DNA from: Yuukianura sp. NJ FZ-2021
Taxonomy: Eukaryota
Reading direction: 5' to 3'
Assembly (NCBI GenBank): GCA_046563655.1
Contig: CM102288.1
Location: 5,270,001-5,334,000, forward strand
DNA length: 64,000 nucleotides
Shown: piece after piece, positions 4,157 to 54,466 of the stretch
How positions within the stretch are numbered: position 1 is the first letter of the stretch
How the letters are laid out: each line of letters starts with the position of its first letter
Notes under the pieces: model-generated
Database searches by the model: none
The model's input: only the letters and a program-made list of their open reading frames with translations
What the model was told of the DNA's origin: nothing
Position numbers and translations under genes: made by a program

Positions 4157-5060
4157 GTGATGGAGTTCATGGCGTCTGTTCAACAGCGCAGCAGCAGTAG
4201 TGAAGCCGAGAAAGAAGCAAGTGACGCTCGGAGAGACAGAGTTGTCAAAAGCATCCGAGCAGTTCACCTGACACAGCCGGAGTCAACTGTCAGCCAATCA
4301 GCGTCGACGTCAACAAAAGACAGCGACGATTTTTTCAACGAATACAACATGAGGTTATGGAGACAATCAGTTCCTACCATGGAAGAACGAATGGGCAAAC
4401 TCCAAAATGCTTTTGCAACTCCGCTACCGGTAAACTTCAGAACATTCTCAAAATTTCAAAGAAATTTTTTTTTTCGTAATTTAAACAAAAAATTTTCCAA
4501 AATTTTCATTTCAGAGTGCTAATTCAGACACAGAGGGAAAGAAAAGTCTAAAGAGAGCCAAGTCCTGTGCTGGAGTGACCCCACGAGGAATAGCCGCTGC
4601 AAAGGTCAACACAAAAGACTGGGTTCAGCAAGTCATTGCTCAAAAATTTCCAGGCGCGCCAATACCCCAAACTTCCAGAATTTCTGAAACGAATGCCCAG
4701 GAAGAACAAATCGGTGAAATTTTGGAAATTCGTGAATCGACTCAACCGCCCGCTAAAACTCAAGTTGTTTCTGAAACAATCGAAGCGATTAAAAGCGACG
4801 TCAGTGATGGCGTCATGAGCGACGGCGACGACGTAATTCTGGACCGAGTCCCAGAACGTGTATTTTATTGTGCCCAGGCAGAAGATAATATAGAAAATGA
4901 AGCTGAACTTGAAGTTAACGCTGAATTGAATGGAAACCCGCCCATAAAGATTCAAGAAAACCCGCCCAATGAATTTGATGAAAAAGATGAAGATTTGCTG
5001 GAATTTTTGGATCCTGTAGATCTTGACGACCTCGAAGCTTGGGCTGGAAAATACCTTTAA
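4157..5060 (+). pseudogene. 5'-truncated duplicate of the MICAL-like gene (last two exons; frame still open from ATG 4160)
   Basis: Exons 4157-4429 and 4515-5060 are paralogous to about 767-1036 and 1131-1679. Similarity stops at the tandem array and upstream exons are absent. Confidence 0.6.
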
Positions 5061-5921
5061 AACACAATTTAGAAAGCAAGTTTCACTTTTTTAAGTTTAA
5101 AACATTCAAATTTTTCAGTTTTTAACTTTCTTTTTCTCCAAAGGAAGAAGTGTTGTACTAGCAATAGTTGATACCGAGATTTTTTTTCTCAAAAAGTTAA
5201 AGGCTAAGCAAACCATATTAAAACCTGAAAAAAATTTGAAAGTTCACTCACAATGCAATGTTGTATCAACTTGATGGGAGCAGAATGCCAATGCTACGAA
5301 TGGAATGCTCCGGGTTTTCTCGAAACCAATTTCTTCGAAAAGTAAATTGCTCCGAAATTATAAAAAAGTACATTAGTGTCATTAGCGTTAAATAGGTTAG
5401 GCTTTTTTAGGCTAACAATGATGAGATTACCCTTGTAGTGATACTACAAGGTCGGATTAGATAAGCATGTATAACTATTTTTGGAACAATCTGGCCATCC
5501 AAGCAGTTAACTTTCCTGAGCAATTTATTCGAAGCAATGCGGTCCGGAGCAAAGGCAAAAGGCATGTTTTGTTATTGAATTGAAACAAATTTGACTTAAT
5601 CATGTTTCATGTACCAACTCATCTTCACTACTTAACGCAATACATATTGGCACAAATACTCAATGTCATTTTAACAAAAAATGACACTGAAGCGACAACT
5701 CTATTTGAAATGAAATTGAAGTGTTGTTTTTACGCAACCAAAATTTCAAGGTTAAATTTCTTACACCTACGAAAAAAGAGTAACTACTACTCAATTAAAT
5801 TTTGGATTAGATAGCAGAATTAGTCTCTGTTCGGACGTACTACGGACTACTTTGTACAGAAGTAGACCTGCTATTTTTAAGTGCAAACTTAAATTTGTTT
5901 TATTTTCATAGTTTTCACAAA

Positions 5922-7770
5922 ATGTTTTGGCTACTTTTTGTCGTTTTTGCCATTTTATTTGCTGTTTGGTTTGGAATTCAAGAATACTTAAAAAGGAGTT
6001 ACAGTTACTGGGATGCAAGAAATGTTAGATTTGTTGATATCCGAAAATTTTATTCTATTTTTGACGGAATCCTGCTCAAATACACAATTAGCGAAAGCGA
6101 ACTAAAGACGTACAATGCAGTAAAAAATGCAGGAATCAATACGTTTTGCGGATTAGTCGAATTCGGAACTCCCGAATTTTACGTCGTTGATCCAGAACTT
6201 ATCAAAACTATTTTGGTAAAATTTCATGTTTCACATTGAAAAATACTGAAGAATATATAAATTCATACATAAATTTATGCGTTGTTTATAATTTTTGGTT
6301 TTGAAGATCAAGGACTTTGATAGTTTTGTGGACCGAAGAGTTGTGGTTACCGGAAACAGTGACATTTTTGGTAAAATGCTGGCAAATATGAAAGGTCAAG
6401 CTTGGAAAGACATGCGCTCTACAATGAGTCCCACATTTACTACAGGAAAAATTCGTCGAATGTATTCCGTTTTCAATGACTCTTCTGAAAAACTAGCAGA
6501 TTTTCTACGAAAACAACCTTCGGAAAACGGAGAATTTGAACTACAGGCCGTTTTTACACGGTACACAATGGACGTCATTTCTTCTGCTGCTTTCGGACTC
6601 GATTCGCAAAGCTTCCAAAATTTAGACTCAGCTTTTTCCAAGTACACGACTCGATTTCAAAACCAATTTTCTGGAATTGGAGGCTTCAAACTTCTCGTTG
6701 CATTTTTTTCTCCCAAAATTCTTGAGTTTTTCAAAATCTCGCTGTTGGATCAGGAGGCTGCTGATTTTTTTGCAAATGTCGTCAAAAGGACAATTGCACA
6801 CCGGGAAGCCACAGGAGAAAAACGTCAAGATTTTTTGCAACTGATGATGGAAGCACGCCAAAATTCGATTGAACCTGTCGCTCTTGATGAAATGAGTACA
6901 TTTGAAAAAGACGCCCAAATTCAAAATTTTTCCAAAGTTCAACTAACCGAGGACTTGATTTTGGCGCAAAGTTTGCTCTTTTTCCTTGGCGGATTTGATC
7001 CAATTGAAACGATGCTTCGGCTTGCAGCGTATGAATTGGCACTTAACCAGGACGTACAAGACAAGCTTTTTGAAGAGCTGAAGGGGGCGTATGAGAGAAA
7101 CAAGGGACAGTTGACCTATGACCTCATCATGCAATTGGAATATTTGGAGAAGGTCACATCAGAAACACTCAGGAAATGGCCGCCGGGCATCCGCTTGGAA
7201 CGCAAAAGTACGAAATCTTACAAAGTTCCTAACTCGGACGTCACAGTTGATCCGGATACACTAGTCGTTATTCCTGTCTACGGAATACACATGGACGAAC
7301 GTATAGATTTGAATTTATATTTCACAGAAATAATTTGTTTTTATTATTTAAATTTAATTAATTTCACTTTATTTATTTTTTAGGGTACTATCCACAGCCG
7401 GAAAAATTCGACCCGGAACGATTCAGCGCAGAAAATAAGGCAAAACGACACCCATTTACTTATATGCCATTCGGTAATTTACAACATACAGACACCATGC
7501 CATACAGTTTACATGGGTTTAAAAAATTTGTGTGTTTTTTTTCTTAAAATTTCAAATATTGTTTTAGGTTCTGGTCCTCGCAACTGCATAGCTATGCGGT
7601 TTGCATTGGCCGAGGGGAAAGCTGCTTTAGCTCATTTGATTCTGAACTTTAAATTTGAACCTTGCGCAAAAACTGAAATTCCGCTAAAATTTAAAACGGC
7701 GTCACCGATGTCACCGTTCAAGCCGGTAAATGGCATGTGGCTTCGAGTTACACCAAGGAAGGAACAATAG
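5922..7770 (+). CDS. Cytochrome P450, clan 3 (CYP6/CYP9/CYP3-like), atypical I-helix GGFDP
   Basis: Exons 5922-6215, 6307-7300, 7384-7473, 7568-7770. N-terminal TM anchor, WxxxR, ETLR, FDPERF, heme motif [11 protein letters not shown]. Confidence 0.95.
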
Positions 7771-8360
7771 TGACATGGAAAAAGAATATCCCACAGACAA
7801 GCATCAAGAATAAGCTTCAACAAGTTGCAAAATAAACGTATCAAGAAATTTCTAGCGATTTCTTCCATATGGTTAATGTTGATGTCGAATTTTCTTTCTT
7901 TTTATTATAAAGTAAAGGTAGAATAAAAAAATATTAAAAATTGAAAAAATTCTCAAGTTTATTCAACAGCACTGTTGTATCAACCGAGTTTATTTTTGGC
8001 ATTGTATAAAACAAATTTCACTCAACCATTGTCATGTCTTAACTCATCTTTGCTGCTAACCACATTATGCATTAGCACAAAAAGTCAATGTCATTTCAAC
8101 AAAAAATGAAACTGAAACGAAGACTCTACTTGAACTGAAGTTGAAGTGTTGTTTTTCCATGAACAAAATTTCAAGGTCGAATTCGTTACATCTACGACAA
8201 AAGTGATATTGCTGGTGCTAAATTGAATTTTTGATTAGATAACTACAGCTATTTGCCACTTATAAGTGGCACAGAGATTCAGTGCCTGCTCGACTCTGCA
8301 CACGAGAAGAATTGCAATTTTACGAATTTAAATTGGTTCCAATTTCATAATTTAGACAAA

Positions 8361-10193
8361 ATGTTTTGGCCACTTTTTGTCGTTTTTGTCATTTTCTTTG
8401 CTTTTTGGTTTGGATTACAAAAATACTTAAAAAGGAATTACGGTTACTGGGATTCAAAAAATGTAAAGTTTTTTGATCTCCGAAAACTTTATTCTGCATT
8501 TGACGGAATACTGCTTAGGTACACAATTGATCAAAGCGAACTCAAGACGTACAATGCAGTAAAAAATGAAGGAATCAAAACGTTTTGCGGATTGGTCGAA
8601 TTTGGAGCTCCCGCATTTTACGTCGTTGATCCAGAACTTATGAAAACCATTATGGTAAAATTTTACATTTTAAAAAAGTTTCAAATTTGAGGACAAAATT
8701 TATGTTCTTTTATTTTTAAACTTGAAGATCAAAGACTTTGATAGTTTTGTGGACCGAAGAATTTTCGCCACCGGAAAGACAGACATTTTTGCCAAAATGG
8801 TATCAAATATGAAAGGTCAAGTTTGGAAAGACATGCGCGCTACAATGAGTCCAACATTTTCAACCGGAAAAATTCGTCGGATGTATTCCGTTTTCAATGA
8901 CTCTTCCAACAAACTAGCAGATTTTCTTCGAAAACAAACTTCCAAAAACCAAGAATTTGAACTTCGAGACGTTTTTACCCGATACACAATGGACGTCATT
9001 TCTTCTGCTGCCTTTGGACTCGATTCTCAAAGTTTTCAAAATTCAGATTCAGATTTTTCCAAGTACACGAAACGATTTCAAAATCAATTTTCTGGAATTG
9101 GAGCCTTCAAATTCCTAGTTGCATTTTTTTCACCCAAACTCCTTGAGTTTTTCAAAATCTCACTTATGGATAAAGAGGCTTCTGATTTTTTTGCAAATGT
9201 CGTCAAAAGGACAATTGCTCATCGCGAATCAACTGGAGAAAAACGTCAAGATTTTTTGCAACTGATGATGGAAGCGCGCCAAAATTCGATTGAACCTGTC
9301 GCCGTTGATGAAATGAGCACTTTTGAAAAAGACGCCGAACTTCAAAATTCTTCCAAAATTCAACTGACTGAAGAGTTGATTTTGGCGCAGAGTTTGCTTT
9401 TTTTCATTGGTGGATTTGATACAATTGAAACCTTGCTGCTGCTTGCAGCGTATGAATTGGCACTTAATCAAGACGTGCAAGATAAACTGTTTGAAGAGCT
9501 GAAGGGAGCATATGATGGAAACAACGGACAGTTGACCTATGATGTTGTTATGCAATTGGAATATTTAGAGAAAGTTACTTCAGAAACACTCAGAAAATGG
9601 CCGCCGGGCATTCGACTGGAACGGAAAAGTACGAAATCTTACAAAGTTCCTAACTCGGAAGCGACAATTGACCCGGATACACTTGTTGTTCTTCCCATCT
9701 ATGGAATACATATGGATGAACGTATGGATTTGTATTTATTTTATAAAATAATTAGTTTATATACATATTCACCTAATTCTAATTTGTGCTGTTATTTTTT
9801 GGTTAGGGTACTATCCTGATCCGGAAAAATTTGATCCCGAACGATTCAACGCAGAGAATAAGGCCAAGCGACATCCATTCACTTATTTGCCATTCGGTAA
9901 TTACACTAAAGAGTCCATAGCATACAGCTTGCATGGGTTTAAAAAAACAATTATTATAAAATAACAACTATAGTTTTTTTCTAAAACATAAAATGACATT
10001 TTTAGGTGCTGGTCCTCGAAACTGCATAGCTATGCGCTTTGCGTTGGCCGAGGGAAAGGCTGCTATAGCTCACTTGATTTTGAACTTTAAATTGGAGCCT
10101 TCCGCAAAAACTGAGATTCCTCTTAAATTTAAGACAATGTCACCCTTCAAACCGGCTAATGGTTTGTGGCTTCGAGTTACACCAAGGAACTAA
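8361..10193 (+). CDS. Cytochrome P450, clan 3, tandem paralogue
   Basis: Exons 8361-8654, 8728-9721, 9807-9896, 10006-10193 (first three exon sizes match the neighbour). [26 protein letters not shown]. Confidence 0.95.
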
Positions 10194-11220
10194 CATTACT
10201 GGAATACAAAAGGATATCCTACAGTCGTTAGCAATAAGCTCAAACATGCTGCAATATTTAACGTGTCCATTAAATTCAAGAATCTTTGCCGCATAAGGCA
10301 ATTAGACTTTTAATGTCCTTTTCATGTTAAAAAGCCAAATTGCGACAGAAGGAAATTAAAAAGTGCGAAGCAAGCAGAAGTTGCTAAGATTAAATTATTT
10401 CACGCATAATTAAATTAACGTAGAAAGTATTTGTACAAAAAATTTGGAAAAGTTTATTACGTTTCTCTCATTTCTCTGCACTACAAGAAAATCCAATGGA
10501 AAAAATTTCCATGGATTTTTTCAGTGTGAACAAACCAAAATCCACTCTATGAATAGAAAATCCATCCACACCTTCTCTGGGATGATCCATCCAGAGAAAG
10601 TAAATCTGGTGTGTGAACTGTATTGCCGTCCAGTGGAACGAAAATCCATCCTGTGGTTCTGTGTGAACCCGCCTTAATGAACCGGTTTCACTTTTGAAAA
10701 ATCATGCCCAAACTGAAAAACATCAAAGTTGAGTTATTGGAAAACCTGTCATAGAAAAACTTTTCTTTGTTTTTCTTTGTTTACCACCTGGTAGTGCTGA
10801 TGTAATTGGCACAAGTAAATGTTACTTGCGTAATTCAACTGGTGTAATGACGCGGAAGCACCGTAACTGATGTATTTGCCCTTTATACAAATGACACTTA
10901 TACACTAAAACTTTTATTATGCAAACTTGTAGTGCAATATATCATTTGGAAGTAATAAATATTAATTTACTTTGACCTTGAAACGTGTGTTCGTTCTAGC
11001 TGCTTTTTACTCTTATTTAACAGGGACTATTTAAATAAATCTCCACTTAACTCAACCCAAATCAGTTCAAAATCTCCCTCTCCAGAATTTAGTTGAAACA
11101 TTTTGAAATTCCAATTTCAAAAAGCCACATTTTACATTAAATGTGCAACTGCTCGTCAAACACAAGTCTGTTACCATATTGATCCCGGCACACCGAAGCT
11201 TAAAAAAACTAAAAAGAAAA

Positions 11221-12165
11221 ATGCATGTCGATTTTGCTTTAAGAATTTTCACACCATTGCTGTCGGTCTTACTTGCACATCAAGTTGAACTTTCTTTTGC
11301 GCAGGTATAATTTCCAGTTTTCAGAATCTCAGAAGTTCAAAAATTTCACTATTTTGAAAATTCTTTTAATAAAATTAGTTTCCAAAAAAAATTTCAGGCT
11401 CCCCTAGTTCCTACTGAGCACATTGACTACATCTTCCTCCGTTTGTCGCACCTCCTGGATCAGACGCCACGTGAAATTTCAAAACTTCGCGCCCTCCTGA
11501 ACGAAGAACTTGAAAGATCACCGGCATACAAAGAAGCTTGGACCGAAGGCACAGAAATTTTTAAATCCCGAAAATCGCAACTGATCAACCGCAGAGACCT
11601 GTTTCGAGTGCCAGACGAGTATCACATTGCCCTCATCACTTATACTATTCACGACACGCCCAAAGATTGGCCATTCTACAGCGTCTTCAACTCAGCTACG
11701 CGCAAACTCGCTACGGGCACGGATGTTGAAAACTTCAAGTTCAAGAGTTTCTTCCAACTTCTGCATCTTGCAGTGGAAACTTTAGGAAAAAAGAAAAAGT
11801 TCGCTCCGAAGTATGACAAACTGTTCCGAGGAGTGACGATTCGCTATGATTGGTTGTCTGATCAGGACGTTGCATTTCAGCAGTTCACTTCTCTGTCAGA
11901 GAATCGAACAGTTTCTGAAATTTATTCTGGAGGAGTTACGTTGTTGGTTTTCAAAAATATGGAAAACATTGGAATTTCAATGGAGTACCATTCTAAATTC
12001 CCGGGAGAATCCGAAATTCTGGTGTCTCCTTTCCAGGTTTTTGAAGTTACCAAGGTTGTCCCGGGAGATGGAGAGAGTTTTGACATGTTTGAAATGGAAC
12101 CAACAAATGCCAAAACGGGATTCAGGTATTTTTGTGACAAAAAGCCCCAGGACGACTATCTGTGA
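11221..12165 (+). CDS. Secreted ecto-type (ARTC, R-S-EXE) mono-ADP-ribosyltransferase, 283 aa
   Basis: Signal-peptide exon 11221-11304 (MHVDFALRIFTPLLSVLLAHQVELSFAQ) plus exon 11398-12165. Motifs HIALITYT, FYSVFNSATR, LFRG, FTSLS, SKFPGESEILVSPFQVFEV. Confidence 0.85.
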
Positions 12166-12822
12166 CGTTAATTAGCTGAAGACGGACTAAATTTGTTAAT
12201 TGTGTCTGTTATGTTCGGAGTAATATAAATATAATGTTGAGTTATATTATATAGTATAGTTATATTGCTGTATAAATTTTGAAAATGAAATAAATACTAA
12301 AATTGTACTCGTTGTGTCTTTGATGTTTTATATTTAAAAAGTTTCTAATTTCATATTAATAAAACACACAATCTTTCTAAACGTTTTTTTTTCCAGGTTG
12401 AAATTACGGTTTCAATCATGAGTGCAAAACGTGTTGTTATGTCCAGCAATTTTTAATTTCTGCAGTGAAAATCTTGAATTTGTTAATTAAACTTTATCTA
12501 GCAGTTGGAAAATATTTTAGGAGTTCATGTTAATGTTTAGTTTCGTGTTTGATTGTCATTAACTCCAAGAACAAGTTGAAATTGGCGTGTTTTGTTAAGT
12601 CAAAGCACGAGAGACGGAAGTGACTTCCAGACTTTCTTTAAAACTTACTCTTTTCTAAATTTTAGGACAAGGAGACACTTTGGTAAATTTGACACACTTC
12701 GGTGACCCTTCAGAAATAAAAGCACTTGAATGAATTCCAAATGCCTCAGTCGTCATTTCATAATGCGTGTAAAGCCAACTTCAATTTTTAGTGTCCCTCG
12801 AAATTTAAAATTTCCAGCCAAA

Positions 12823-15700
12823 ATGGCTGGAACTTTTGGAAGTAACAACAACCAAGCTGGAAAGCCTTTTGAAAGTCAAGGTGACCTGTGCTGCGGCCAC
12901 CCGCCGCTGACATGCCATGCTATTGACTTCTGCAACGAAACGGCAATGCATGGCCTCAAGTACATTGTTCAACCAAAACGGCATTTCGCCGAAAGGTAGA
13001 GTTTACTTTTTTCGAACAAATTGGTTCGAAACAAATTGGTTCAAAAAATTGGCGCGAAAACAACTTGGTTTGAAGCAAATGTGTTCGAAATGCTTAAAGT
13101 ATTTCGAAATGGATTTAAACATTTTCTTCCAAGCAATAACGTTCTGTTTTTATAAGGAATTAGCTAATTTTAAATTATCAACACATTATTCCAAAGGAAT
13201 TTTCACGAAAACGTAAACCGAGGATAATTGTTTGATTTTGGCGGGAATTGTTTTAGGCTGTTTTGGTTGGCGTCTTTTGGCATTGGCCTTGGTCTGTCTG
13301 TGTGGTTGATCCAAGACGTTTTCCGGAAGTACAAGGAAAATCCAATCATCGTTTCCTTCTGGCCAGTCGAAACACTCGTTTCGGAAGTTCCGTTTCCCGC
13401 CGTAACTGTTTGCAACATGAACAGAATTCTAAAAAGCAAAGCATTGGAGTACATCAGGTAAACAAATTTTTTGATACTCATACGTAGTACTGCATCTCAA
13501 CTTGTACTTTTCTTGCAGAGCTGCGCATGCAGTTGACCTAGATGCAGGTCAGTTGACCCCTGAGGCTATTAAGGCATTGTCTAATTTCTATAGCCTCAAC
13601 CATGTCTGCTCATCTCCCAAAAGTTTCACGCAAACTTTTAATTTGAGCGCCACGGAGGGAGTGGCAGACGAAAGGATTATAAACAAAGTCAAAAATTTGA
13701 AACTCACCTCCAACGACACCTCTCTACATTATTTTTTCAAAGAGGTAACATTTTCCAAAATTTCGAAAGTTTTTGAATATCCTGCTTTTTTTACACAAAG
13801 CTATTTTCTGCTTTTTAAGAGTTCGCAACCATGCCGTCAAATGATTCCGCTCTGTGTCTGGCGTGACAATGTGCGCAATTGCAGTGAACTTTTTAGACAC
13901 ATCGAAACTGGTACAAAATATTGCTTACCCTTGAAAATTTCTGGTTTACAATTTTGAAAACTTTTGGTTTTCAGATTTTGGAAAATGCTGCACGTTCAAC
14001 ATGGCTCCCCAACTCCTCCTGACAACATTCAAGTATGAGTCATACGACACGGAATTTAATTTTCAGAAATTCTCGAAAAAAAGCAAAAATTTTCATTAAC
14101 TTCTGCTTTTTATTGTAAAAATTTGAAAATTGCAGTAATCCTGCCAACGCGAGTGCGAAATCCCGCGAAGCTGCTGCTGCGTGGAGCTCAGTCGGCTCTT
14201 CTTTGGACACGGAGGACCTTGTTCCGAAAACAACCGAAGCCAAGGAGCGACTTGCCGAATTTCCATTTCCGCGCCGCGCCAGAAGCGCTGGAAAAACTTA
14301 CGGCCTCTCTTTCCTCTTACGACCGGATTTACCCGAGTACTTTTGCAGTGGATCTGATTCAATAGGATTCAGAGTAAAACTAACAAAATTTCAACAAAAG
14401 CTGAATAGTTTTTATGAATTTTTACATTTATATTACTTCATAATTTTTAATTTTGAAATTCTTAAGATCACTACCCATTTTACGACAGCGATGCCTCATC
14501 TGATTGACTTTGGAACTGTTGTTGAACCGAGCTCAGAAGCTTTCATTCAGGTCACTCCAGACATCACCATTGGAGATGACAGCATCAAAGGACTTTCACT
14601 CGTAAGTGGGTCAAAGGTCATCAGAGGTCATTGATCTTTCTCGGGTCAATGACCTTCAGTTATGGAAAGATCAATGTTACAAGTAGGTCATTGACTTTTC
14701 TTAGGAAAGCAGAAGGTGCTACCTGAAGGGCGAGTTTACTCTGAAATTTTATCGATTCTACACAAGAGAAAACTGTATTGATGAGTGCGTGACAAACACC
14801 ACTTTTGAGGTAAAAAACAATTTTTTTTTTCGAAAATTCACTCAAAATTGAACAAAAATTTCTGAAATTTTCCCACTTTGCATACGCTATACGCTTACGT
14901 CAGAATTGCCATTGTGTTCGCTACTATATGACAAGTGAGACAAACACTTTGTTCAAAAAAACGTTTGAAAAAAAATTTTTTTCACAGAAAAATGAAACAA
15001 AATCGTAACAATTTTTTTTGAAAATTGCAAAAACTGCCAGATGATGGAACTCAACAGTTGTGTGGACCAACAAAATTCAATTGTACGGAAATTGTACGTC
15101 GTAAGTGAAAAATATTCAATTAACCTGATCTTTGACAATTTGAAAATTGGCGGGATTTGTTTTTAGATAAAATTTTGAATGCGAGAGACGGACAATTCTG
15201 CCATCAATGTAGACCAACTTGTACTGAAATCAGCTACAGCACCGCCACCACATTCACTCCCTTGCAAAGTGATCTCGAACTTTGGAGCAGCACTACCAAT
15301 ACGTAAATGCAAAAAGTGCAACAAACAATTAGCTCAGCACAAATTACTCTGAAAAATATTAATTACTTTTGAACTTATTGCTGTTGAACTGCTTAGAACG
15401 AATCACAACGCCTCCATTGTCCACCTTTTCTTCTCTGAGCAAAGTTTCTACCCCAAAATTCGGAAGGAATTGTTTGGCATCACTGATCTGACTGGTGAAT
15501 TTTTTTTTTACAATATCACAGAAACTTAATTTTAAAAACTTATTTCTAAATAGAATTCTGCTTTACATTAATTTCGTTTATTTTAAATAATTTCAGCGAG
15601 TGTTGGTGGTTTGCTGGGCCTTTGCCTTGGTTTCAGTGCGTTGAGTGCTGTCGAACTTATTTATTTTCTCACCATCCGACCCTGGGCCACAAGACCTTAA
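12823..15700 (+). CDS. DEG/ENaC (pickpocket-like) sodium channel subunit, 13 exons
   Basis: FCNETAMHGLKYI pre-TM1, TM1, VPFPAVTVCNMN, TDFGKCCTFN, Cys-rich thumb (RRCY, ENCIDEC, CHC, CRPTC), TM2 ASVGGLLGLCLGFSALSAVELIYF. All exons join in frame via GT-AG to TAA at 15698-15700. Confidence 0.93.
14608..14697. promoter_or_regulatory. Intronic cluster of nuclear-receptor half-sites (DR1, DR4, three IR1/EcRE-like elements)
   Basis: GGGTCAaAGGTCAtcagAGGTCAtTGATCT ttctc GGGTCAaTGACCT ... AGGTCAtTGACTT within intron 14602-14704. Half-sites are unchanged in the copy at 62920-63022. Confidence 0.45.
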
Positions 15701-16262
15701 GCAATTTTTTTTTCATTTAAAAATTTTAGATCGTATATGGAAATTCAAACATTTTTTTGGAATTTTTAAAACTCTCTGATGAAGATTCGAATTTTTGTTT
15801 TAAAAAAAACCTTCGACAAGAATTCCGTCAGGACTTCGACTGCTATCCATCAACAAATTTTTGCTCAAAAGTAGTTTTGTTTTGTAAAAACAAGAAAAGC
15901 TTTTTTTGAAGTCAACTTAATCATATAATATCGTGACTGTTTTGAGGTCACGTCAAAGGCAAGTTAAGTCCTGTGATATCGTGTCCACTTTAAGGAACGA
16001 GCATTTTCAGGCTTGCCAATGGTTCTAGTATTCAGAACTAAATATTAATGAAATTGAAAGTATACGTTTGGATTAGGAAAATGCTTTGAAAAATATCCAT
16101 GAAATTATTTAGCAATTCAAAGAAACGCGCGATTCGACTTTCATAAAGTTCGAGGTAATTATACAATTCGCCACAGTTATTGCCTCGTGTGAAGTTGAAA
16201 TCCACAAATATAACTTTTTAGTTGTGTGTTAACAGTTGCTTTAAAGAAAACAGGATTTCAAA

Positions 16263-18696
16263 ATGAGTTTAATTATACCGTTGGTTTTAAATTTCCTACT
16301 ATTCTTACCCATTAATTTTGCTTTTGACAAACGGGAGTTAATGGTGGAAAATTTAAATCAATACTTGAACTTTTTCAGCGATTGCAGAGTCCATCTTTAT
16401 TTTGACAACAAAAATGTCGGTTTAGAGGAACCTTCAATTCCTGTCTACATTGGAAACGTACGTTCGACTCCCAGTCCAACAAGTCTTGACAATTTCTTCA
16501 CCACTAAAACTCTACAAAATTGGCACTATGAGTTGTATCTAAACGCCTCCGATTCAACATCTCACTTTTGTGTCATCTATTTCTTTATTCATTACAAAAT
16601 GAATTGGGCTGGATTCTTTGGAACAAGTGCATTTCAGCGCGGCGAATTTCTATTTTTTCCGGGAGCAACCGTTTCCTTTGTTATTTTCCATGATCCTAAA
16701 GTAGAAGAGCCACGAAAGAATACCGGGGGCAAATATTTGGTAAACTATGAAATTCCATATGCAATTTGTAAGCTACAAGAGAAACATTTCTCCAAAAGAG
16801 CGGCTCATCGGCGTTACTTTGCTGTAAACAGAATTGTGCTTGGGGAATTTATGAACAGAAGAGATGAGGTGTTTCCAATCCCTTTGATTTGCAGATTGGC
16901 CCACGATAAACAGTATTGCTTGCCGAGCAAGCAAATGCTTCGTATAACCCTATATAGAAATAGTCAAGGAAAGTTCGTACGGTTTGCAGTAGATGGGAAA
17001 CGCTGCGGCCCAACCGATGTTAACATTACTGATGAAATCGTGACTAAATTTTTTGGGCCTCCAGAAAAGATGGTGAGCAATACATTATGGTTGCGCAACT
17101 CAGTGAATACGACGAGAATACATCATCATGATGGTCTTGTATCCTTAGACGACGTCAGTATTTTTGATATCCATCTTCTATTTCACTTGATTGGTGCCAC
17201 AATTAGCTGTTTTACGGTAATTCATGCAGATAAATTTGTGGACCCACCGAACACAGGTTCCTATTTTTTAATGCCAATGAATAACCTAATGTTCGACGAC
17301 GTTGTAAGAGTGCTCGGAATTGACAGAAAACCAGCATTTGTGGACTACTATTCGTCTTGGCCCAAGATGGTGGTACAAACGGAAATAAACAAAGTTCTGT
17401 TTGCAACTTGTGATGGTGTTCACACTGCATTGTCTTTTGAAATTTATTTGGATCCATTCGACTGGCATATCTGGCTGTTCATGGCTTTTTCTGTCGTTCT
17501 CTTAATTCCTACGTCGCTGGCCGGGGTAACGCTATTAAAACAACATAAAGTACAATACGTGATAATTTTTGCAAAGTACGTCGAATCTGCACTGTTTACC
17601 TTAGTTGACGTAAGTTCCAGTATTAGTGACAAGGTACTGGAAAAACTACAACTAAAATCCTACCATCGAGTTGTGTTTGGAACATGGCTCATACTGTGCG
17701 TTGTGTTGGTCAATGCATACAAGGGGCTGTTTACCTCCCAAATGTCTGGGCCACTAAAACCGCAACATACGTACATAAAACCAACAGACCTCGGAGGCTT
17801 TTTACTATTTGGAGCAGGCTCCAAAACTATGGCCCGAATTTATGCAAAATATCAAAAACAAGACTGATGTATATATTAACCCAGTGTACTGCGACTGCTT
17901 GGATCTTGGCATTCGTGTCGGCCCAAAGAGGTCGCACGACGATTGTGGTGCTTTGAAAAGAGTTAGAGCTCAATTGGACTACGTCCGCTCGAACTATGTC
18001 ACAAACACGACAGTAACAGACGCTTTCTGTCGCCAGCTTCCGCCTGAAGTTGCAGCTGACTATTGGACAATCTTTCAACTGGGTGGGTCTGACGCAAATG
18101 CAAAACTAAATTGTACGCGCGACAGTTGCAAACCGGTGTTTATAAGCTACTTATTCTCTGGCAGGGACGAAGAAGATAAAATTTCTAAGTTTGCCGAATG
18201 TGATAAGGTTGCAGTTATGGATTACAAAGATGACGTTCACTACATTGTAAACAACTTAGTTATAGAGTCCCAGGGCAATAAGTCAGTTCCCAATCAGTTT
18301 ACCATAGGAAAAGAACCAGTGGCTTCAACATGGGAGGGGTATGTTCTTGAGCGCCCCTATCCAAAACTTAGACTTGCTCAGTCCAGGATTCTCCAAAGGT
18401 TGCAAGCTCTCGTCGAAAATGGAATTCAAACGTTTTGGCAAGGCTGGTTTGAGTGTATAACAGAAGGACAAATTAGTACATTGGAAACTAAAGAAACGGC
18501 GGCAAAGGTACGGCTGTTACCGAAAACGATTACACTGGAAACAAACATTGTGTCCAGTGGTATTGTGTGGGCTGTCGGAGTTGTAGCTGCTATGGTGGTT
18601 TTCATTGGTGAGAAGTGCTCAGTCATGGACTCCCGTACAGTTTGGATGGAGTTTCAGCTATTACTGTGCATTTACAGCTTTAGCCGAAAAAATTAG
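16263..18696 (+). pseudogene. Intronless divergent ionotropic-receptor (variant iGluR)-like gene with one frameshift (pseudogene or sequence error)
   Basis: Signal peptide, TCDG...SFEIYLDPFDWHIW+TM1, FGTWLILCVVLVNAYKGLFTSQM (M2), LQALVENGIQTFW plus final TM in the second ORF. The two ORFs are offset by +1 between 17779 and 17867. Confidence 0.75.
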
Positions 18697-19243
18697 TTTT
18701 GACTATTGCTGAATAGTTAGTAAAAGTTTTAGAATAACCACACCATGAAGTATTTTGAACACGTTCCTATTAGTTTAAAAACCAAACTTCCTTTGAATAT
18801 TTGAAAGTTGGAGACATATCCCAACCGGGAACCAAGCTTTCTTTGTAATTTCAGTCGCTTGCAAAACAAAAAATGTTGTCAATGTTTTTTTTGCCTTAAC
18901 CAGAATCCTTTAAAAAATACTTACAACACCAGTGAACAAAATGCAACCAGAATTTCTCCTAAAAGTTGTGTAAAGGGGAAGTTGAACCAATTGTAATTGT
19001 AAATAAAATAAGTTGTGATTCCGCTTTCACATTTTGAGAGAGAAAAATTAAGACTAATTTTTTTTTGTTACTCAAATTTTTCAGACGATTATAAAGAATT
19101 GAAACTGTTACTAAATGAAGTTGCAACATGGATTTCAACTAAATGTACTTGTAGAAGAATACGCAGGTCTAATTCGATTGAGTTAAGGCAACGCGGAGTA
19201 ATGTAGTGGCTAAGTCGCGTGTAACCCCAGTAGGAACAATTTT

Positions 19244-19560
19244 GGGAAATTTCGCCGGAATGCTCTAGGAAGGTGGGATTTCGCTTTTTTTCTATCTTTA
19301 GATTTTTCAAATAATTTCTAATAACTCTAAATTAACCCAATTAAAAACGCGTATATACATCATGTCGTGATTTTTGTTTCACAAAATGTTGGGCGAAATT
19401 TATTAGAAAAGTGATTCGAACTATTTCCCAAGTAAAAGTCAATTAACGTAAAGTTTGGAATTTCCCTAAATTAGTTTTTTAATCGTTTCGTCTGAACCAA
19501 TTTAACCTAATCTCAATATCCGGGCTAATTAGCAGAATCCAGGCTATGTATGTATAAATA
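19244..19560 (+). promoter_or_regulatory. Promoter of the MiAMP1-like gene: kappaB-like sites and TATA box
   Basis: GGGAAATTTC at 19244-19253, GGAATTTCCC (reverse GGGAAATTCC) at 19457-19466, TATAAATA at 19553-19560. Confidence 0.5.
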
Positions 19561-19662
19561 CCGTTAAATCTTTCTTTTGCCCTAACTTATAAACAAAGTT
19601 TACAAAACGCGTAAATTATTTTTGAGGAGAAAAGTTGCGAATTTTCTGCTTCTCGAAAAATT

Positions 19663-20039
19663 ATGGCCATGCCAACTTTATTGAGCATTTTTGTCGTCGT
19701 TTTGGTCTTCGGGGTTATTGGTAAAAAAATGATATTATTCAGACAAAAGTTAAACTTGAAGAGCAATCTACTAAATCGTTTTTTAAAGTCGCAGTAGATG
19801 GAAGTCGTTTCGTAGCCTCGAGCTACAGCAACTTCAGTGGAAGCAAAAGTACAATCACGGCTTGTGGCTGCAGCAGCATTACACGGAGCGGCTCCTACAA
19901 ATGGACTGCGCAGGGTCAAACTGGGCGTGTGTACAACCAAGGAAACTGCCAAGGAGTTGCTGATTTTACGTTGGCTTCGGACACAGATACACAACAAGCC
20001 TCTGGATTTGGATGGAAAAGTATATTTATTGTTTGCTAA
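19663..20039 (+). CDS. Secreted MiAMP1-family (beta-barrelin) antimicrobial peptide
   Basis: Exon 19663-19720 (MAMPTLLSIFVVVLVFGVI), phase-1 intron, exon 19795-20039 (in-frame alternative acceptors at 19789 and 19798). Mature peptide SRFVASSYSNFSGSKSTITACGCSSITRSGSYKWTAQGQTGRVYNQGNCQGVADFTLASDTDTQQASGFGWKSIFIVC aligns end to end with MiAMP1 (CGCS.I, GQT...YNQ..C.GVA, FGWKSIFI.C). Confidence 0.9.
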
Positions 20040-21075
20040 CACAACATAAACTAAAAGGTTACTTAAGCTCCGTTACACAACATAAGTTATCTTAGACTAG
20101 GTAACATAACTTAATCTAGTGAGGTCATGTAGTTACGTGACCTGGCTAAGCTCACTAACTAACCTAACTCACTAACCTAAAATCCAATCACACCAAAACT
20201 TGGTCACTTCATTACCATCATACAAAAATTTGCTAATAGTGCGCTTCTGAAATTTGGACACAATTAAAATTCTTTCCCTGAAAACCGTTTAGGAAATAAT
20301 AAGTTGATGCTTCTGAAATTTATTTTTCTTAACTTACAATCTCTTTCCTCAAAATTTGTTCTCGTTTTGCAATTTTTTAGTTACATAAGTAAGAAACGAT
20401 CTGCCAAGAATTCTTCCGGCTTGTTCCAAATTTGAGAACCGTGCAAAATTTTCCACAAATTTGGTATAAAAATTGTATCCTTTGTGGTACTATAAATCAC
20501 GTAAACTCAAAATTGTAACTTTTGCGCTACATGGTGGATAACCAACACCGGGAAAATGGATACAAATTTCGTGTATTGCAACTTTACCGTGACGTATGTT
20601 CATCTAACCAAACGAGGCAAATGGTTTTGTAATATTATTTTTCAAGTGTTTTAACTTTAAAAAAGCATTGAAAAAAAAAATAACATAATGCCCAGAAAAA
20701 AATTGAAATTTTTAATCCTTGTGTAAGTGTTTCTTTCGAACTTTTTAATATATGGCCGTTGGCTCGGGCGACCTTCACTGAAATGCGGAACTGAAGCGAG
20801 GTCAAGCACTAGTTTTAACGCCAGTTCAGAACCGACTTTGAATTAATTACGGAGACAGTGGTGTCGAAATTTTGAAGAATCTGTTGAAAACGGGGTTGAG
20901 TGAAGTGGCCCAGTCGTGGTCAAATTTATCAGGTTGCGGTTAGGAAGCTTTCCTGTTTCCAGCAATTTGACTTAATTAACTTCGACTAATTTACAGCCAA
21001 AGATTCATCAGGCGATGGATTTTAAGTTTCGGAAGCACAAGCACACGCAGTGTCTCTTTGACACTATTTCACATC

Positions 21076-23154
21076 ATGAGTTGGTTCAGTTGCTGCTTGA
21101 ATTGTTTCTACTGCTTCCGGAAACGGAGTCGACGCACGCGCAGACTCGATGGAGACAGTCAGCAACAAGCCATGATTCTTCAGGAAAATTCTGCTCAGAA
21201 AAATTACACTGATTTGGGCAATGTTCTTCCCTCCACGTCCAACAAAGGACTTGTAAGTACACAACGTTTTCCTTGAAAAATATTTTTTTGATAGAATTTC
21301 AAACGAAAAAATGTTGGTTTACTAAATTTGTGCTTAGGAAATCGTGGTTGAGCTAACTATTAATATTACTAAATTGACAGAGTGAAAAGCAATTCTTGGA
21401 AGGCGTAGAGGGACTAATGGACGATGCAGAAAACGTACCAAAAGCTAATTTGGGAAGACTTAAATTCCGCGTAAATTTCAAAATTTTAATGAAATTTCGA
21501 ATTTAAAACTCTTATAACACAATTTAAATTCGGTTTTAATTTTTCAGCTTCAACATGACCCAATTGCCAAATCACTTTCAGTCTTCGTGCTAGAAGCCGA
21601 TGGTCTACCAGCTATGGGTAATTTAAAAAAAAAAAGTTAATCAAAATTTGTACCGTGTTAGAATTTTTTTTTTGAAAAAACACGTTTAATGCAAATGCAG
21701 ATCTTGGCGGCACATCTGACCCTTACGTTAGAATTTCTCTGCTGCCGGAACGTGAAGGCCAATTGAAAACATTTGAAACTCGAGTTCAACAGAAAACTGT
21801 TACTCCATCTTTCAATGAATGTTTTGTCTTTCCGGTATTCAAAAAAGTCCTAAAATTGAAAGAAAGCAAACTTTTCGTCTGTTTTTTGAGTGTTAAAAGA
21901 ATTTGTGTGTGTTTTTTTTGTAGAATGTGCCATTCAGTGAATTGATGAACAAGACCCTGGTATTGGCTATGTTTGACTTTGACCGCTTTTCAAAGCATGA
22001 TCCCATTGGAGAGCTGCGCATTCCCCTCTTCTCTGTGGATTTTATCCACCCTGTTGACGAGTGGCGCCCTCTTCAACCCATTGAAGATTCAGATATGCGT
22101 GGAAACAAGTTAGGCGAGCTTTGTTTCTCACTGCGTTACGTCCCCACCTCTGGAAAACTAACAGTGGTCATAATGGAGGCTAAGAATTTGAAGAAGATGG
22201 ACATGGGCAGCGGCCTTTCGGGTTAGTTTTTGAAATGGGTATGGCACAAACTCCTAGAAAAAGTATAGTCTGTTCGACCTGGCTGCATTTTTATCACTTA
22301 TTATGGGAACTATGAACGTCGTTTTATGAAATATCAATTGAATCATCAATTTTTAACTTCTCGAGACAACTAGATCATAAAAAATTTGGGGTCAAAGGTC
22401 ACCACACCAGTGGTAATTTTTCAGTCCGGTCGCACTGACTCTTTCTTCTTATAGGATTATTTGTGTTATGCCTTTTCTATTAACTTTATATTAAACTATT
22501 TCATATTAATTCATTTTTTTGTAGATCCATTTATCAAGATCTATTTGATGCAAAAAGGGAAGCGTTTGAAGAAAAAGAAAACGACAATTAAAAAACGAAC
22601 ACTCAATCCATACTACAATGAGTCATTCACATTCGATGTTCCGTTCAAGAACATTCCGGTATACTCTTAAAAACTAAAAACAAATAACAATATATCAACA
22701 AACTTCATTAACATAGACACAGACTGCATGAATATAAACAAACCTCTTGGCATATGTTTTAACACGCAATGTGACTAATGGAACGATAAAATTCGTCGTT
22801 TTACTTTTTTTTTGCCAGTATTTGTTTGCTTACTTTTGCACTTTTGGTATCACCGTTTCGTGGATTTTTGTGCGCGGAGTGGCTAAATCTATTTTGCATA
22901 AGTGAAAACCACCAGTCGATTTTTACTAAAATTTTAGTCGTCAAAATTTTACTTTTTAGGACATTTCTTTGGTGTTGACGGTGATTGACTACGATCGGCT
23001 GTCCAAATCGGATCCAATTGGACGAGTTGTGGTGGGTTCGAAGGCGGGAGGACTTGAATTACGGCATTGGACAGACATGTTAGCATCTCCTAGAAGACCA
23101 ATTGTTCAGTGGCATATTCTGAGAGACCCAGACGACAAGAGAGACGACGATTAA
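21076..23154 (+). CDS. Synaptotagmin-1-like tandem C2 protein (start uncertain)
   Basis: Exons 21076-21252, 21381-21470, 21548-21617, 21701-21834, 21924-22221, 22525-22658, 22960-23154. C2[13 protein letters not shown]...[11 protein letters not shown]2B KMD...[22 protein letters not shown], WHxL. Frame is also open upstream to an acceptor at 20996. Confidence 0.88.
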
Positions 23155-36545: not shown

Positions 36546-38822
36546 TTAGCGAGGTTTGACTGACAGAAACAGTTTTCCACCGTCAGGTTTGAAACCAGAA
36601 GTTTTCGAATACTTCATGGGAATTGGCGTTTTTGCGGTTGGTTCAAGCTGGAAGTTCAAAACTAAGTGAGCAATTGCAGCTTTTGCTTCTGCAAGAGCGA
36701 AACGCATGGCGATGCAGTTTCTAGGTCCAACACCTAAAATTTTAAACGACGAAATTAATATTTAACTAACATTTTTGAATTGTTTTTTGAAAAACTGAAA
36801 TTTTGTTTCGAAATTTGAATTTTTTGAATGAACTATACCAAATGGCATGTAGGCGTAAGGATTTCGAGCGGCCTTGGCTTCCGCAGAAAATCTTTCCGGG
36901 TCAAATTTTTCTGGATCAGGATAGTACTCTAAAAAACAAAATTTCATTAAATTAAAACTTTAATTCATTAAAAAATTCAATTAAAAGTCGGTTCAAATGT
37001 TTAGAAAACTATGAACTACCTTATAATTACAATTCCAATTACTGTAATTACTGTAATTATAATTACCCGAATCATGGTGAATTCCGTAAACTTGGGCTAC
37101 TACAGCAACACCTTTGTCCACAACGACGTCTGAGTTTGGTAGTTTGTAAGGTCGTGCAGTAATCCGTTCTGTCCTGACTCCTGGCGGATACTTGCGCAGT
37201 ACTTCTGAAACGACTTTGTCCAAATACTCGATTTTCATAATCAAATCATGATCCAATTTCCCACCGTTGGATTCACTCGCATCACGAATCTCTTCGTACA
37301 ACTTCGTCTGAATTTCAGGATGAACTGCTAATTCATACGAAGCAAAAAGCAGTACAGTCTCGACCGTGTCAAATCCAGCAAAGAAAAACAACAAACTTTG
37401 GGACAAAATGAGATCCTCAGTTAGTTTCACTTTGTTGCTTGATTTTGCGAGTTCTTCCGAAACCATTTCGTCAATTTCCGTCTCTTCCTTGGCTTGTTGA
37501 TTCTTTGCTTCAATCATCAACTGCAAAAAGTCATCTCGAACTTCCCCAGTTGCCTCGCGGTGTTTAATAGCTTTTCGAGTAACCTCGGCAAAAAAAGTTG
37601 TAGACTTTTTGTCGCTCACGGAAACTCCAAAATATGCAAACACTTTTGGAAATAGGAGCATTGCGAACAAAAGGAATATGCGTGGAATTGAAACTGTCTG
37701 AAGCCGTTTGGCCATTTTGCAAAACTCGGAGTCCGTTTCTCCAAAATTTTGACTGTCCAATCCAAAAGCAGCGGAAGAAATGACATCCAAGGTGTAGCGT
37801 GTGAAAATGTCACGCACTTCTAGTTCTGTTTCCCCTTTCTCAACTTTGTTCTTAATAAATTCCGCCATTTTGTTGGAAGATGAACCGAAAACGTCAAACA
37901 TTCTACGAATTTTCCCAGTAGTGAAAGTTGGACTCATGCTTGACCTAGAAAAAATAAAAAATTAATCAAGGAAGAGGCTTCAAGGTTCCTTGACGACGAA
38001 AAGTTAATTTTGTTTAACAGGTTGGGTACTACCTCGCTTGCTGGCAAATAAACGAAAAAAGTAGTCCCAATTTAGTACCAATCCAAAAAAATTTATACCA
38101 ATTCGTATGCAAAATTAAAAAAATTGCTTATTGCTATGACTAGGATGCCTTGGAATAAAAGTGGAAAATTTTTGGCAAAATCAAAGAAAACATGAAGTAT
38201 TACCCAACCTTTCAAAGATAAGTAACAAATCAACAAACCTTGGAGTGGCCAAGCTCAAAGGTCACGAGGTCAGCTAGCATACGCTATTGTTAGGTTAATA
38301 AAAATTGCATTACCTCATGTCTTTCCATTCTTGATCTTTGAGATTGATCAACATTTTGTGAAAAAGTGGGTCCGATTTGGAAAAATCAAAAAGTTGTCTC
38401 CGATTCACAAAATAGTCAAAATCTTTCACCTTTGCGTTGAAAAAACAGAAGAAAATTAGAAATTTTCTAAATTTTAGTGTTTCAAAAATAATATATTTTT
38501 TTTTCATTTCTTATGTCCAATTTACCATAACGTGCTTGATCATGTCCAAATCCATAATGTAGAGACTTGGACTTCTGAATTCAATGACCCCGGCATACCG
38601 TTCACCCGTTCGTTTCAATTCATCGTACATCAGGCGTTCAATGATGTGAAACGGATTTTTGAATGTGAGGCGATCATACAATGACATGACTTTTGAATGT
38701 TCCAGGAAAAAGATTCCTCGAGATGGCCAGTATTTCCTGTCTCCACCGGAGTACTGCCATAAGGCATACACTGCCCCGCCAAGTAGAGCCACCACAATTA
38801 GAACCCACCAGACCCACCACAT
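36546..38822 (-). CDS. Cytochrome P450, clan 3 (more distant paralogue)
   Basis: Exons 38822-38526, 38429-38314, 37944-37067, 36928-36839, 36733-36546. [26 protein letters not shown]. Confidence 0.93.
37981..38242. mobile_element. hAT-like MITE in CYP intron 2
   Basis: CAAGGTTCCTTGA...TCAACAAACCTTG ends, inverted subterminal AGGTTGGGTACTAC/GTATTACCCAACCT, colinear with 49170-49411. Confidence 0.7.
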
Positions 38823-52967: not shown

Positions 52968-53067
52968 NNNNNNNNNNNNNNNNNNNNNNNNNNNNNNNNN
53001 NNNNNNNNNNNNNNNNNNNNNNNNNNNNNNNNNNNNNNNNNNNNNNNNNNNNNNNNNNNNNNNNNNN
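52968..53067. other. Assembly gap (100 N)
   Basis: Run of exactly 100 N, typical of a gap of unknown size. Confidence 0.99.
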
Positions 53068-53612
53068 GTGCCAATTCAGACAAAGAAGGAAAGAAAAGTC
53101 TAAAGAGAGCCAAGTCCTGTGCTGGAGTGACCCCACGAGGAATAGCCGCTGCAAAGGTCAACACAAAAGACTGGGTTCAACAAGTCATTGCTCAAAAATT
53201 TCCAGGCGCGCCATTACCCCAAACCTCCAAAATTTCTGAAACGAATGCCCAGGAAGAACAAATCGGTGAAATTTTAGAAAATCGTGAACTGACTGACCCG
53301 TCCGCTAAAACTCAAGTTGTTTCAGAAACTATTGAAGCGATTAAAAGCGACGTCACTGATGGCGTCATGAGCGACAGCGATGACATACTTCTGGACCGAG
53401 TCGCAGAACGTGTATTTTATTGTGCCCAGACAGAAGATAATATAGAAAATGAAACTGAACCTGAAGTTAACGCTGAATTGAATGGCAACCCGCCCATAAA
53501 GATTCAAGAAAACCCGCCCAATGAATTTGATGAAAAAGATGAAGATTTGCTGGAATTTTTGGACCCTGCGGATCTTGACGACCTCGAAGCCTGGGCTGGA
53601 AAATACCTTTAG
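53068..53612 (+). CDS. Last exon of MICAL-like copy (5' part lost in gap)
   Basis: Near-identical to 4515-5060, open to stop after ...EAWAGKYL. Confidence 0.6.
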
Positions 53613-54466
53613 AACTAAATTTATAAAACAAGTTTCATTTTGTTAAGTTTCAAATATTCAAAATTTTCAGTTTTTAAGTTCCTTTTTCTCCAAACGAAGA
53701 AGTGTTGTACTAGCAATAGTTCATACCGAGATTTTTTTCTCAAAAAGTTAAAGGCTAAGCAAACCATATTAAAAACTGAAAAAAAATTTCTAAAGTTCAC
53801 TCACAATGCAATCTTGCATCAACCGCGTATTGTTTCATGGGGGCAGCATGCCAATGCTACGAATGAAATGCTCCGAGTTTTCGCGAAACCAATTTCTTCG
53901 AAAAGTAAATTGCTCCGAAGTTATAAAAACGTACATTAGTGTCATTAGCGTTAAATAGGTTAGGCTTTTTTAGGCTAACAATGATGAGATTACCCTTGTA
54001 GTGATACTACAAGGTCGGATTAGATAAGCATGTATAACTATTTTTGGAACAATCTGGCCATCCATGCAGTTAACATTTCTGAGCAATTGGTTTCGGAGCA
54101 ATTTATTCGAAGCAATGCGGTTCGGAGCAACGGCATAAAACCAATTTTGTTATTGAATTGAAACAAATTTGACTTATCATGCCCCAACTCATCTTCGCTA
54201 CTTAACGCAATAAGTACTGACACAAAAAGTCAATGTCATTTTAATAAAAAATGACACTGAAACGACAAGTCTTATTTGAAGTGTTGCTTTTACGCAACCA
54301 AAATTTCAAGGTTAAATTCCTTACACCTACGAAAAAAGAGTAAGTACTACTTAATTGAGTTTTGGATTAGATAGCAGATTTAGTTTCTGTTCGACTTTGT
54401 ACAGAAGTACACCTGCTATTTTTAAGTGCGAACTTAAATTTGTTCTATTTTCATAGTTTTGACAAA

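Follow-up and report, generated by a model that had tools for sequence, protein, structure and literature searches.

MiAMP1 of Macadamia integrifolia and the other plant beta-barrelins, such as the pine peptides Sp-AMP and PmAMP1, are antimicrobial peptides (AMPs) of the Pfam family PF09117, in which a leader is followed by a domain of about 76-80 residues. The classical plant members carry six cysteines paired as C11-C65, C21-C76 and C23-C49, and MiAMP1 itself (PDB chain 1c01) is the only member of the family with a solved structure. Here we describe a gene of this family at positions 19663-20039, on the plus strand, of a 64,000-nucleotide stretch of contig CM102288.1 in assembly GCA_046563655.1, labelled Yuukianura sp. 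NJ FZ-2021; this whole stretch is referred to as the window. The product of the gene shares PF09117 and a predicted eight-strand Greek-key barrel with the plant peptides, and it probably represents the first case in an animal of a family already known, acquired by horizontal transfer.

Pine Sp-AMP3 is reported to bind beta-1,3-glucans, not chitin, and to deform hyphae, in a bioRxiv study (10.1101/127746); its binding of beta-1,3-glucan also appears in a review (PMC7476358) whose relevant sections treat the MiAMP1 family as one of plants. A passage of PMC9903846 records PF09117 from fungi and a subset of Actinobacteria, and describes a two-cysteine homologue from Streptosporangium becharense, with an isoelectric point (pI) of 8.67, that inhibits yeast. 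The actinobacterial peptides, which occur in Streptosporangiaceae, Thermomonosporaceae and some Streptomyces, are secreted; most of them have two cysteines and hence one disulfide, and they are encoded by high-GC, intronless genes.

The transfer of enzyme genes into springtails is well documented, and to our knowledge there are few cases in which a complete AMP has passed between kingdoms into an animal. Four papers describe as acquired by springtails a beta-lactam biosynthesis cluster, terpene synthases of microbial type and carbohydrate-degrading enzymes (PMC5200902, PMC13638087, PMC9460274, PMC10051947). The gene described here resembles these in being a microbial gene lodged among the host genes of a soil hexapod; however, those acquisitions are enzymes, whereas this one would be a ready-made, gene-encoded AMP. 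Our literature searches on MiAMP1, on MiAMP1 together with horizontal gene transfer and on PF09117 returned nothing on animals, and no paper in the library searched joins MiAMP1 with Collembola, though the supplementary tables of springtail transfer studies might list a PF09117 gene. A 2023 survey of springtail AMP genes (PMC10051947) does not mention such a gene and contains neither 'macadamia' nor 'crystallin'.

Gene structure, family and fold

The gene and the putative signals around it are laid out as follows.

19663-19720, plus strand: exon 1, 58 nt, encoding, from the ATG on, a hydrophobic leader of 19 residues (MAMPTLLSIFVVVLVFGVI) and closing with the first base of codon 20
19721-19794, plus strand: predicted phase-1 intron, 74 nt, GC 0.27, GTAAAA...CGCAG (GT..AG), read directly from the sequence
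19795-20039, plus strand: exon 2, 245 nt, encoding the MiAMP1 domain (81 residues when read from 19794) and closing with a TAA stop at 20037-20039
19553-19558, plus strand: TATAAA, a possible core promoter about 105 nt before the ATG, with a second one at 19588 (motif match only)
20263-20268, plus strand: ATTAAA, a hexamer resembling a poly(A) signal (motif match only), the sole such hexamer within 660 nt past the stop

When spliced, the frame is 303 nt long and consists of 100 codons and one stop. The context of the ATG at 19663 is good, and a stop in the same frame lies 17 codons before it. The frame of exon 2 is open from 19725 to 20036 and has no methionine ahead of the MiAMP1 domain; the splice is therefore needed to supply a start codon and a leader. 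An earlier note, made from the DNA of the window, had proposed a two-exon gene at this place encoding CGCSSI, GQTGRVYNQGNCQGVA and FGWKSIFIVC. This gene could be read directly, and all three motifs lie in the 81-residue peptide translated from 19794-20036 (P0001). The corresponding strings of Macadamia MiAMP1 given in the note are indeed seen in the alignment with 1c01.

The leader encoded by exon 1 aligns with the leaders of homologues, and together with its hydrophobic run this suggests that it may be a signal peptide. By analogy with the junction A-x-A/S-x-F-V-A-Y of the homologues, where the slash marks the cut, cleavage might occur after VDG. The predicted mature peptide would then have 78 residues, a mass of 8.3 kDa and a pI of 8.8 (range 8.5-8.8). 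The 78-residue length given in the earlier note thus stands if the leader is cut at this position, the position itself being a prediction.

Four further scans added no feature at the locus. An Rfam search over 17000-23000 returned no match, and a tblastn search of the peptide within the window recovered the gene itself only. Direct or inverted repeats flanking the gene, as possible marks of a mobile element, amounted to short AT-rich pairs of chance-like appearance. A scan for bacterial promoters and terminators was empty, and is irrelevant here.

The encoded peptide matches the Pfam MiAMP1 model PF09117 with an E-value of 1.7e-15 and 57.4 bits, against a gathering cut-off of 26; the match covers positions 9-76 of the 76 in the model. 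This comparison, which had been suggested as a check, gave a match far beyond chance. Against the solved MiAMP1 chain 1c01 the E-value was 2.1e-11. Each of the 11 columns that are invariant or nearly so in our 60-row family alignment (A4) is kept in the window peptide, and 57 of the 60 aligned sequences match PF09117 individually. The window gene is a genuine member of the MiAMP1 family, with a predicted beta-barrelin fold. No NCBIfam family matched the peptide. Clusters of Ascomycota proteins from a protein atlas gave weak matches, at most 0.90, with recognition below threshold, and were left unused.

The structural check that had been called for also bore out the assignment. An AlphaFold2 model of the peptide, built from A4, has eight strands, with a mean predicted local distance difference test score (pLDDT) of 95.9 and a predicted template-modelling score (pTM) of 0.83. 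In a Foldseek search of the PDB with this model, 1c01 came out on top, with template-modelling (TM) scores of 0.83/0.88 and a root-mean-square deviation of 1.5 A over 78 columns, at 37% identity in the structural alignment. The runners-up were betagamma-crystallins, at E-values of 0.02 or worse. The peptide is accordingly predicted to adopt an eight-strand Greek-key barrel of betagamma-crystallin-like type.

The four cysteines of the window peptide align with C21, C23, C49 and C76 of 1c01, and there is no cysteine at the positions of the third pair, so that it has four cysteines where the classical plant beta-barrelins have six. The equivalents of C21-C76 and C23-C49 are kept, and the C-terminal FGWKSIFI.C is nearly identical to that of MiAMP1; a predicted leader and a domain of similar size complete the resemblance. 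In contrast to MiAMP1, the peptide lacks the third disulfide, its loop is longer by two residues, it has GSYKW in place of GGYxF, its pI is lower and its host is an animal. The earlier note had given the missing pair as C11-C64; a passage in the literature numbers it C11-C65.

Relatives and the four-cysteine, long-loop subgroup

A HMMER search of 1.84 billion protein representatives at E-values of 1e-3 or better yielded 53 proteins, of which two long repeat proteins were excluded from the trees. Thirty of the 53 were looked up: 21 have a named organism, and nine have metagenome or sequencing-run sources only. The named relatives comprise three Basidiobolus ranarum paralogues counted as one entry, four entries from Mortierella, 11 from plants (three from Stephania, two each from Papaver and Cryptomeria, and one each from Anthurium, Adiantum, Macleaya and Pinus) and five from actinobacteria. 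No animal occurs among these 21, in a search that covered protein representatives and not animal genomes; this agrees with the horizontal acquisition proposed in the earlier note. The remaining 23 relatives were placed by a quick tree: 20 fall in a two-cysteine actinobacterial clade among named Actinomycetota, and three (P0036, P0048 and P0049) in a clade of plant six-cysteine and Streptomyces four-cysteine sequences.

The best named match is from Basidiobolus ranarum, at 57% identity (KAK9703259.1, with two paralogues). These proteins and hypothetical proteins of Mortierella are the named relatives most like the window peptide, with the same cysteine pattern, the same loop and the same GSYKW; they differ in being products of fungal genes. 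A tblastn scan of one genome per GTDB species returned 50 loci, all 50 in Actinomycetota (Streptosporangiaceae, Thermomonosporaceae and two Streptomyces at 58%). The actinobacterial peptides thus reach an identity comparable to that of the fungal ones, and they share the 13-residue loop, GSYKW and a similar pI (8.67 against 8.5-8.8), but unlike the window peptide they mostly have a single disulfide and form a clade of their own. Identity to the plant six-cysteine rows is 34-44%, and to the proteins of Stephania cephalantha 47-48%. A scan of JGI metagenomes with the single protein matched 254 stretches, none of which encodes a relative; with a four-row alignment it gave four loci of 61-73% GC and bacterial appearance. 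A word-indexed protein search with the peptide yielded no candidate, which is uninformative for a query of 81 residues.

Cysteine number, the length of the loop before GW and the GGY or GSY motif divide the alignment A4 into four types.

Six-cysteine type: 10 rows, 7 of them named and all of these from plants; loop of 11-12 residues; GGYxF in 9 of the 10
Four-cysteine, short-loop type: 4 rows, from Streptomyces and Embleya; loop of 11-12 residues
Two-cysteine type: 38 rows, actinobacterial; loop of 13 residues in 36 of the 38, mostly with GSYKW
Four-cysteine, long-loop type: 8 rows, namely the window peptide, Basidiobolus, three Mortierella, Stephania P0004, P0003 and P0018; loop of 13 residues with SY/SF-x-W/Y

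The characters of the window peptide (CCCC without an extra cysteine pair, a 13-residue loop and GSYKW) are those of Basidiobolus, Mortierella, P0003 and P0018. On these sequence characters the four-cysteine, long-loop form is a subgroup of its own, between the two-cysteine actinobacterial and the six-cysteine plant forms. The third disulfide is absent from the whole subgroup; therefore, no loss in the animal is needed, and its absence is a trait of the subgroup and not a derived, selected change. The earlier note was thus right that two of the cysteine pairs are kept and that the third is absent, but its reading of the peptide as a selected variant that had lost the third pair is not supported. 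Nor is its term 'plant-type' supported, given the fungal and actinobacterial members on record in a passage of PMC9903846 and the fungal-type, four-cysteine characters of the peptide.

Phylogenetic trees were computed on 84-100 alignment columns, a quick one with 101 rows and a careful one with 61, from which eight rows that were long or redundant and 32 actinobacterial loci that were nearly identical had been left out. The careful tree places the window peptide outside the plant six-cysteine clade (support 99/93), outside the clade that joins the plant six-cysteine and Streptomyces four-cysteine sequences (98/93) and outside the two-cysteine actinobacterial clade (93/80). Forcing it together with three fungal-type rows cost 0.54 log-likelihood units (lnL) in an approximately unbiased (AU) test (p 0.48), so that the test is indifferent to a grouping with Basidiobolus and Mortierella. 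The phylogeny that had been asked for thus separates the window peptide from the classical plant clade, while the tree and the AU tests do not discriminate between donors. Taken together, the sequence characters and identities favour a fungal, or else actinobacterial, source over the classical plant clade.

Two sets of relatives are of interest in themselves. In UniRef the Basidiobolus ranarum proteins P0002, P0055 and P0056 bear the name 'Lactococcin 972 family bacteriocin'. P0002, the cluster representative, groups with MiAMP1-family sequences in both alignment and tree, and P0055 and P0056 are members of its 90%-identity cluster; the name therefore looks wrong. In Stephania cephalantha, P0004, P0005 and P0052 lie on one 50-Mb contig, which thus holds several homologues of the four-cysteine, 13-residue-loop ('fungal-type') form and not of the six-cysteine form. 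Two of these three proteins have odd C-terminal extensions. The four-cysteine forms of this plant may go back to a transfer of their own or to an ancient lineage of the family within plants.

The gene and its arthropod context

The intron of the peptide gene (74 nt, GC 0.27, GTA donor) resembles eight approximately delimited introns of neighbouring P450 genes, which are 69-97 nt long with a GC content of 0.12-0.26 and GTA donors. The note's reading of it as a spliceosomal intron is supported. The exons have a GC content of 0.43-0.47, and their GC content at third codon positions (GC3), 0.44, lies within the range of 0.29-0.55 seen in eight host frames; the genes of the actinobacterial homologues have 60-67% GC.

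Four DNA sequencing runs cover this stretch, three from one sample and one (X4) from another study with another organism label. Contig depth over the gene is about that of its flanks in all four runs (193-223 against 187-246 in X1, and 3.4 against 3.8-7.5 in X4). An X2 contig of 844 nt extends over 19582-20424 with three differences, and an X4 contig of 347 nt over 19699-20041 with six; the gene is thus about 98% identical under the second organism label. The gene-bearing contig reaches 385 nt into the AT-rich 3' flank, where it overlaps a 2441-nt X4 contig that leads from 20338 into the C2 exons of the downstream gene, and parts of the 3' flank in X4 lack cover by the listed contigs. The first sample also contains contigs of lower depth and about 87% identity over the gene (19669-19976) and its flanks (18443-18805 and 20012-20891). 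Since gene and flanks alike are spanned, the entire locus exists in a second, diverged copy. The gene appears physically linked to host genes and is unlikely to be a contaminant, and it has an intron and a base composition of host type.

A high-copy element lies at 19093-19200, 460-570 nt before the ATG, with a summed contig depth of 1864 against about 200 in X1. Loose contig ends are numerous at 19093/19095 and 19193/19201, and all listed contigs break there, 5' of the gene. A search for a 20-nt motif of this repeat found nothing.

The window has a GC content of 36% and one gap of 100 N at 52968-53067. Its other features are as follows.

16245-18693, plus strand: upstream neighbour, an orphan gene of arthropod type that may encode a divergent ionotropic receptor (IR), read as two long open frames of 540 and 305 residues that overlap
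21676-23151, plus strand: downstream neighbour, synaptotagmin-like exons with two C2 domains (Pfam)
5922-7758, 8412-10187, 36549-38789 (minus strand), 54467-56304 and 56883-58711: CYP9-like P450 cluster (Pfam), nearest named relatives of springtail and beetle CYP9 type
11311-12162, plus strand: NAD:arginine ADP-ribosyltransferase (ART, PF01129), single long frame, E-value 2.8e-24
59908-60684, plus strand: ART, single long frame, E-value 8.2e-25

P450, ART, ASC-channel and C2 genes, assigned by Pfam within the window, flank the peptide gene on both sides. The synaptotagmin that the earlier note had placed downstream was recovered: its exons follow the peptide gene at a distance of 1.6 kb, and among PDB chains synaptotagmin-1 matches best (E-value 1.5e-19). 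The IR-like gene that it had placed upstream found no such confirmation, as the frames at 16245-18693 match no Pfam family. They have one metagenome homologue, 28% identical, and the language-model clusters nearest to them are arthropod (0.95) and ionotropic glutamate receptor or IR (0.85-0.89), a lead that makes an IR-like identity plausible. In two genes of the P450 cluster, the introns measure about 70-95 nt where they were inspected. A 396-residue P450 frame has its best matches among soil-metagenome proteins (61%); its named matches are from Orchesella dallaii (40%) and Allacma fusca (41%), followed by insect CYP9 proteins at 36% or less. Judged from these sequences, the context of the contig is that of an arthropod, probably a collembolan.

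A stretch of 11 kb occurs twice in the window, at 4516-15693 and 53068-64000, with 91-94% identity, each time with two P450 genes, an ART frame and ASC fragments. The second copy starts directly after the gap and runs off the end of the window. The repetition reflects either a real segmental duplication or a haplotype left uncollapsed. Were the second stretch to extend past 64000, the peptide gene might occur again some 4 kb beyond the end of the window, an arrangement that would fit the lower-depth contigs of about 87% identity.

Origin and possible role

Our preferred explanation, which we consider fairly probable, is that an arthropod, most likely a springtail or close relative, carries this gene intact in its nuclear genome, that the gene encodes a secreted MiAMP1-family peptide and that it was acquired horizontally from a soil microbe. 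Horizontal acquisition is the best reading because no animal was found among the named relatives. The direction, into the animal, is suggested by the distribution of diversity, since actinobacteria and plants hold a wealth of family members and animals, in our data, this single one.

Several points weigh against this explanation. The splice junction 19720/19795 and the expression of the gene are predictions from the DNA. The leader is devoid of a basic n-region, the cleavage site is a guess, and the pI of 8.5-8.8 is below the value of about 10 that a passage of PMC7476358 quotes for MiAMP1. Small, unannotated genes of other arthropods would be invisible to protein searches such as ours. With regard to the donor, the best actinobacterial loci, at 58% identity, are as close to the peptide as Basidiobolus is, at 57%, and sequences with four cysteines and a 13-residue loop are also carried by a plant, Stephania, so that a plant donor of that subtype is conceivable. 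The window peptide and its subgroup fall in the unresolved centre of a tree based on about 80 alignment columns. Further, an AU test that forced it together with nine plant six-cysteine rows, a group chosen after inspection of the quick tree, cost 8.8 lnL and did not reject the grouping (p 0.20). On the 5' side of the gene, 19146-19475, where the high-copy repeat lies, is unbridged by the listed short-read contigs; linkage to the upstream gene consequently rests on the assembly.

Some of these points bear directly on rival explanations. The AU result for the plant rows and the four-cysteine proteins of Stephania cephalantha, together with the first description of the family in plants and the status of 1c01 as the only solved relative, speak for a plant donor, from which a classical MiAMP1 would have been transferred, with one disulfide then lost under selection in the animal. 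We regard this as unlikely: all ten six-cysteine rows differ from the window peptide in three linked characters (the cysteine pair, a loop of 11-12 residues and GGY versus GSY), the careful tree sets it apart from both clades that contain them, its identity to fungal and actinobacterial sequences is well above that to the plant six-cysteine rows, and the disulfide in question is missing from its whole subgroup. It is quite unlikely that a fungal gene from a gut or cuticle associate was misjoined to arthropod sequence, by contamination or in a chimeric assembly, although the nearest named relative belongs to an animal-associated fungus, short GT-AG introns occur in fungi too, the 5' interval is unbridged and the scaffold contains an N gap and a suspicious duplication. 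Gene and flanks have the same depth in four runs; the gene contig tiles through the 3' flank into a contig, from a different study, that extends to the synaptotagmin-like exons; a second, diverged copy takes in the gene as well as both flanks; and the intron agrees with neighbouring P450 introns in length, donor and GC, as GC3 does with host values.

Ancient vertical inheritance, under which MiAMP1-like genes of early eukaryotes survived patchily and here in one arthropod lineage, would require that an 80-residue peptide kept 57-58% identity to fungi and actinobacteria for more than a billion years, and transfers would still have to be assumed for the bacterial members. In plants and fungi, too, the distribution of the family is patchy, the tree centre leaves such an origin room, and small genes are easily missed by annotation; nevertheless, with 1.84 billion representatives searched and 30 relatives looked up, none of the 21 named ones is from an animal, and we hold this explanation to be highly unlikely. 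A transferred but idle gene, integrated and intact by chance and either not expressed or not antimicrobial, is rather unlikely, but it would account for the presence of only a non-canonical ATTAAA after the stop and for an atypical leader with no basic residue. It fits less well with an intact frame in which all the conserved columns persist and whose model is very confident, with conservation in the face of a base composition that has drifted to host values, and with the near-identity of the gene under the second organism label.

Under horizontal acquisition from a soil microbe, the gene would have entered the animal lineage most likely from an early-diverging fungus of the Basidiobolus or Mortierella kind, or alternatively from an actinobacterium; a plant donor is unlikely. 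It would later have become host-like, both in its GC and GC3 and in the short GT-AG intron, rich in AT, that separates leader from domain. The product, a mildly basic four-cysteine peptide of about 8.3 kDa, would be secreted, and after removal of the leader it would form a compact barrel with two disulfides. By analogy with its relatives it would act extracellularly on the cell envelopes of fungi, and possibly of Gram-positive bacteria, probably via beta-1,3-glucan of the cell wall. The glucan target is the best guess in view of the activity known for MiAMP1, Sp-AMP3 and the Streptosporangium homologue and of the conserved surface and core columns that the peptide keeps. The effect would be an extra antifungal effector, useful to a soil animal that feeds on fungi and encounters fungal pathogens. 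We lean slightly towards the fuller scenario in which a soil hexapod captured an antifungal peptide from early-diverging soil fungi (or actinobacteria), added an intron and host regulation, and now secretes it in defence.

That the MiAMP1 family extends beyond plants is already known; what is new is its probable first animal member. If the explanation is correct, an animal MiAMP1 extends this plant, fungal and actinobacterial family to Metazoa, and adds a class of effectors that homology-based surveys of springtail immunity have not sought. Its product would moreover provide a small antifungal scaffold, stabilised by disulfides, that animal cells express naturally, and the gene would be a case of a microbial weapon turned against microbes by an animal.

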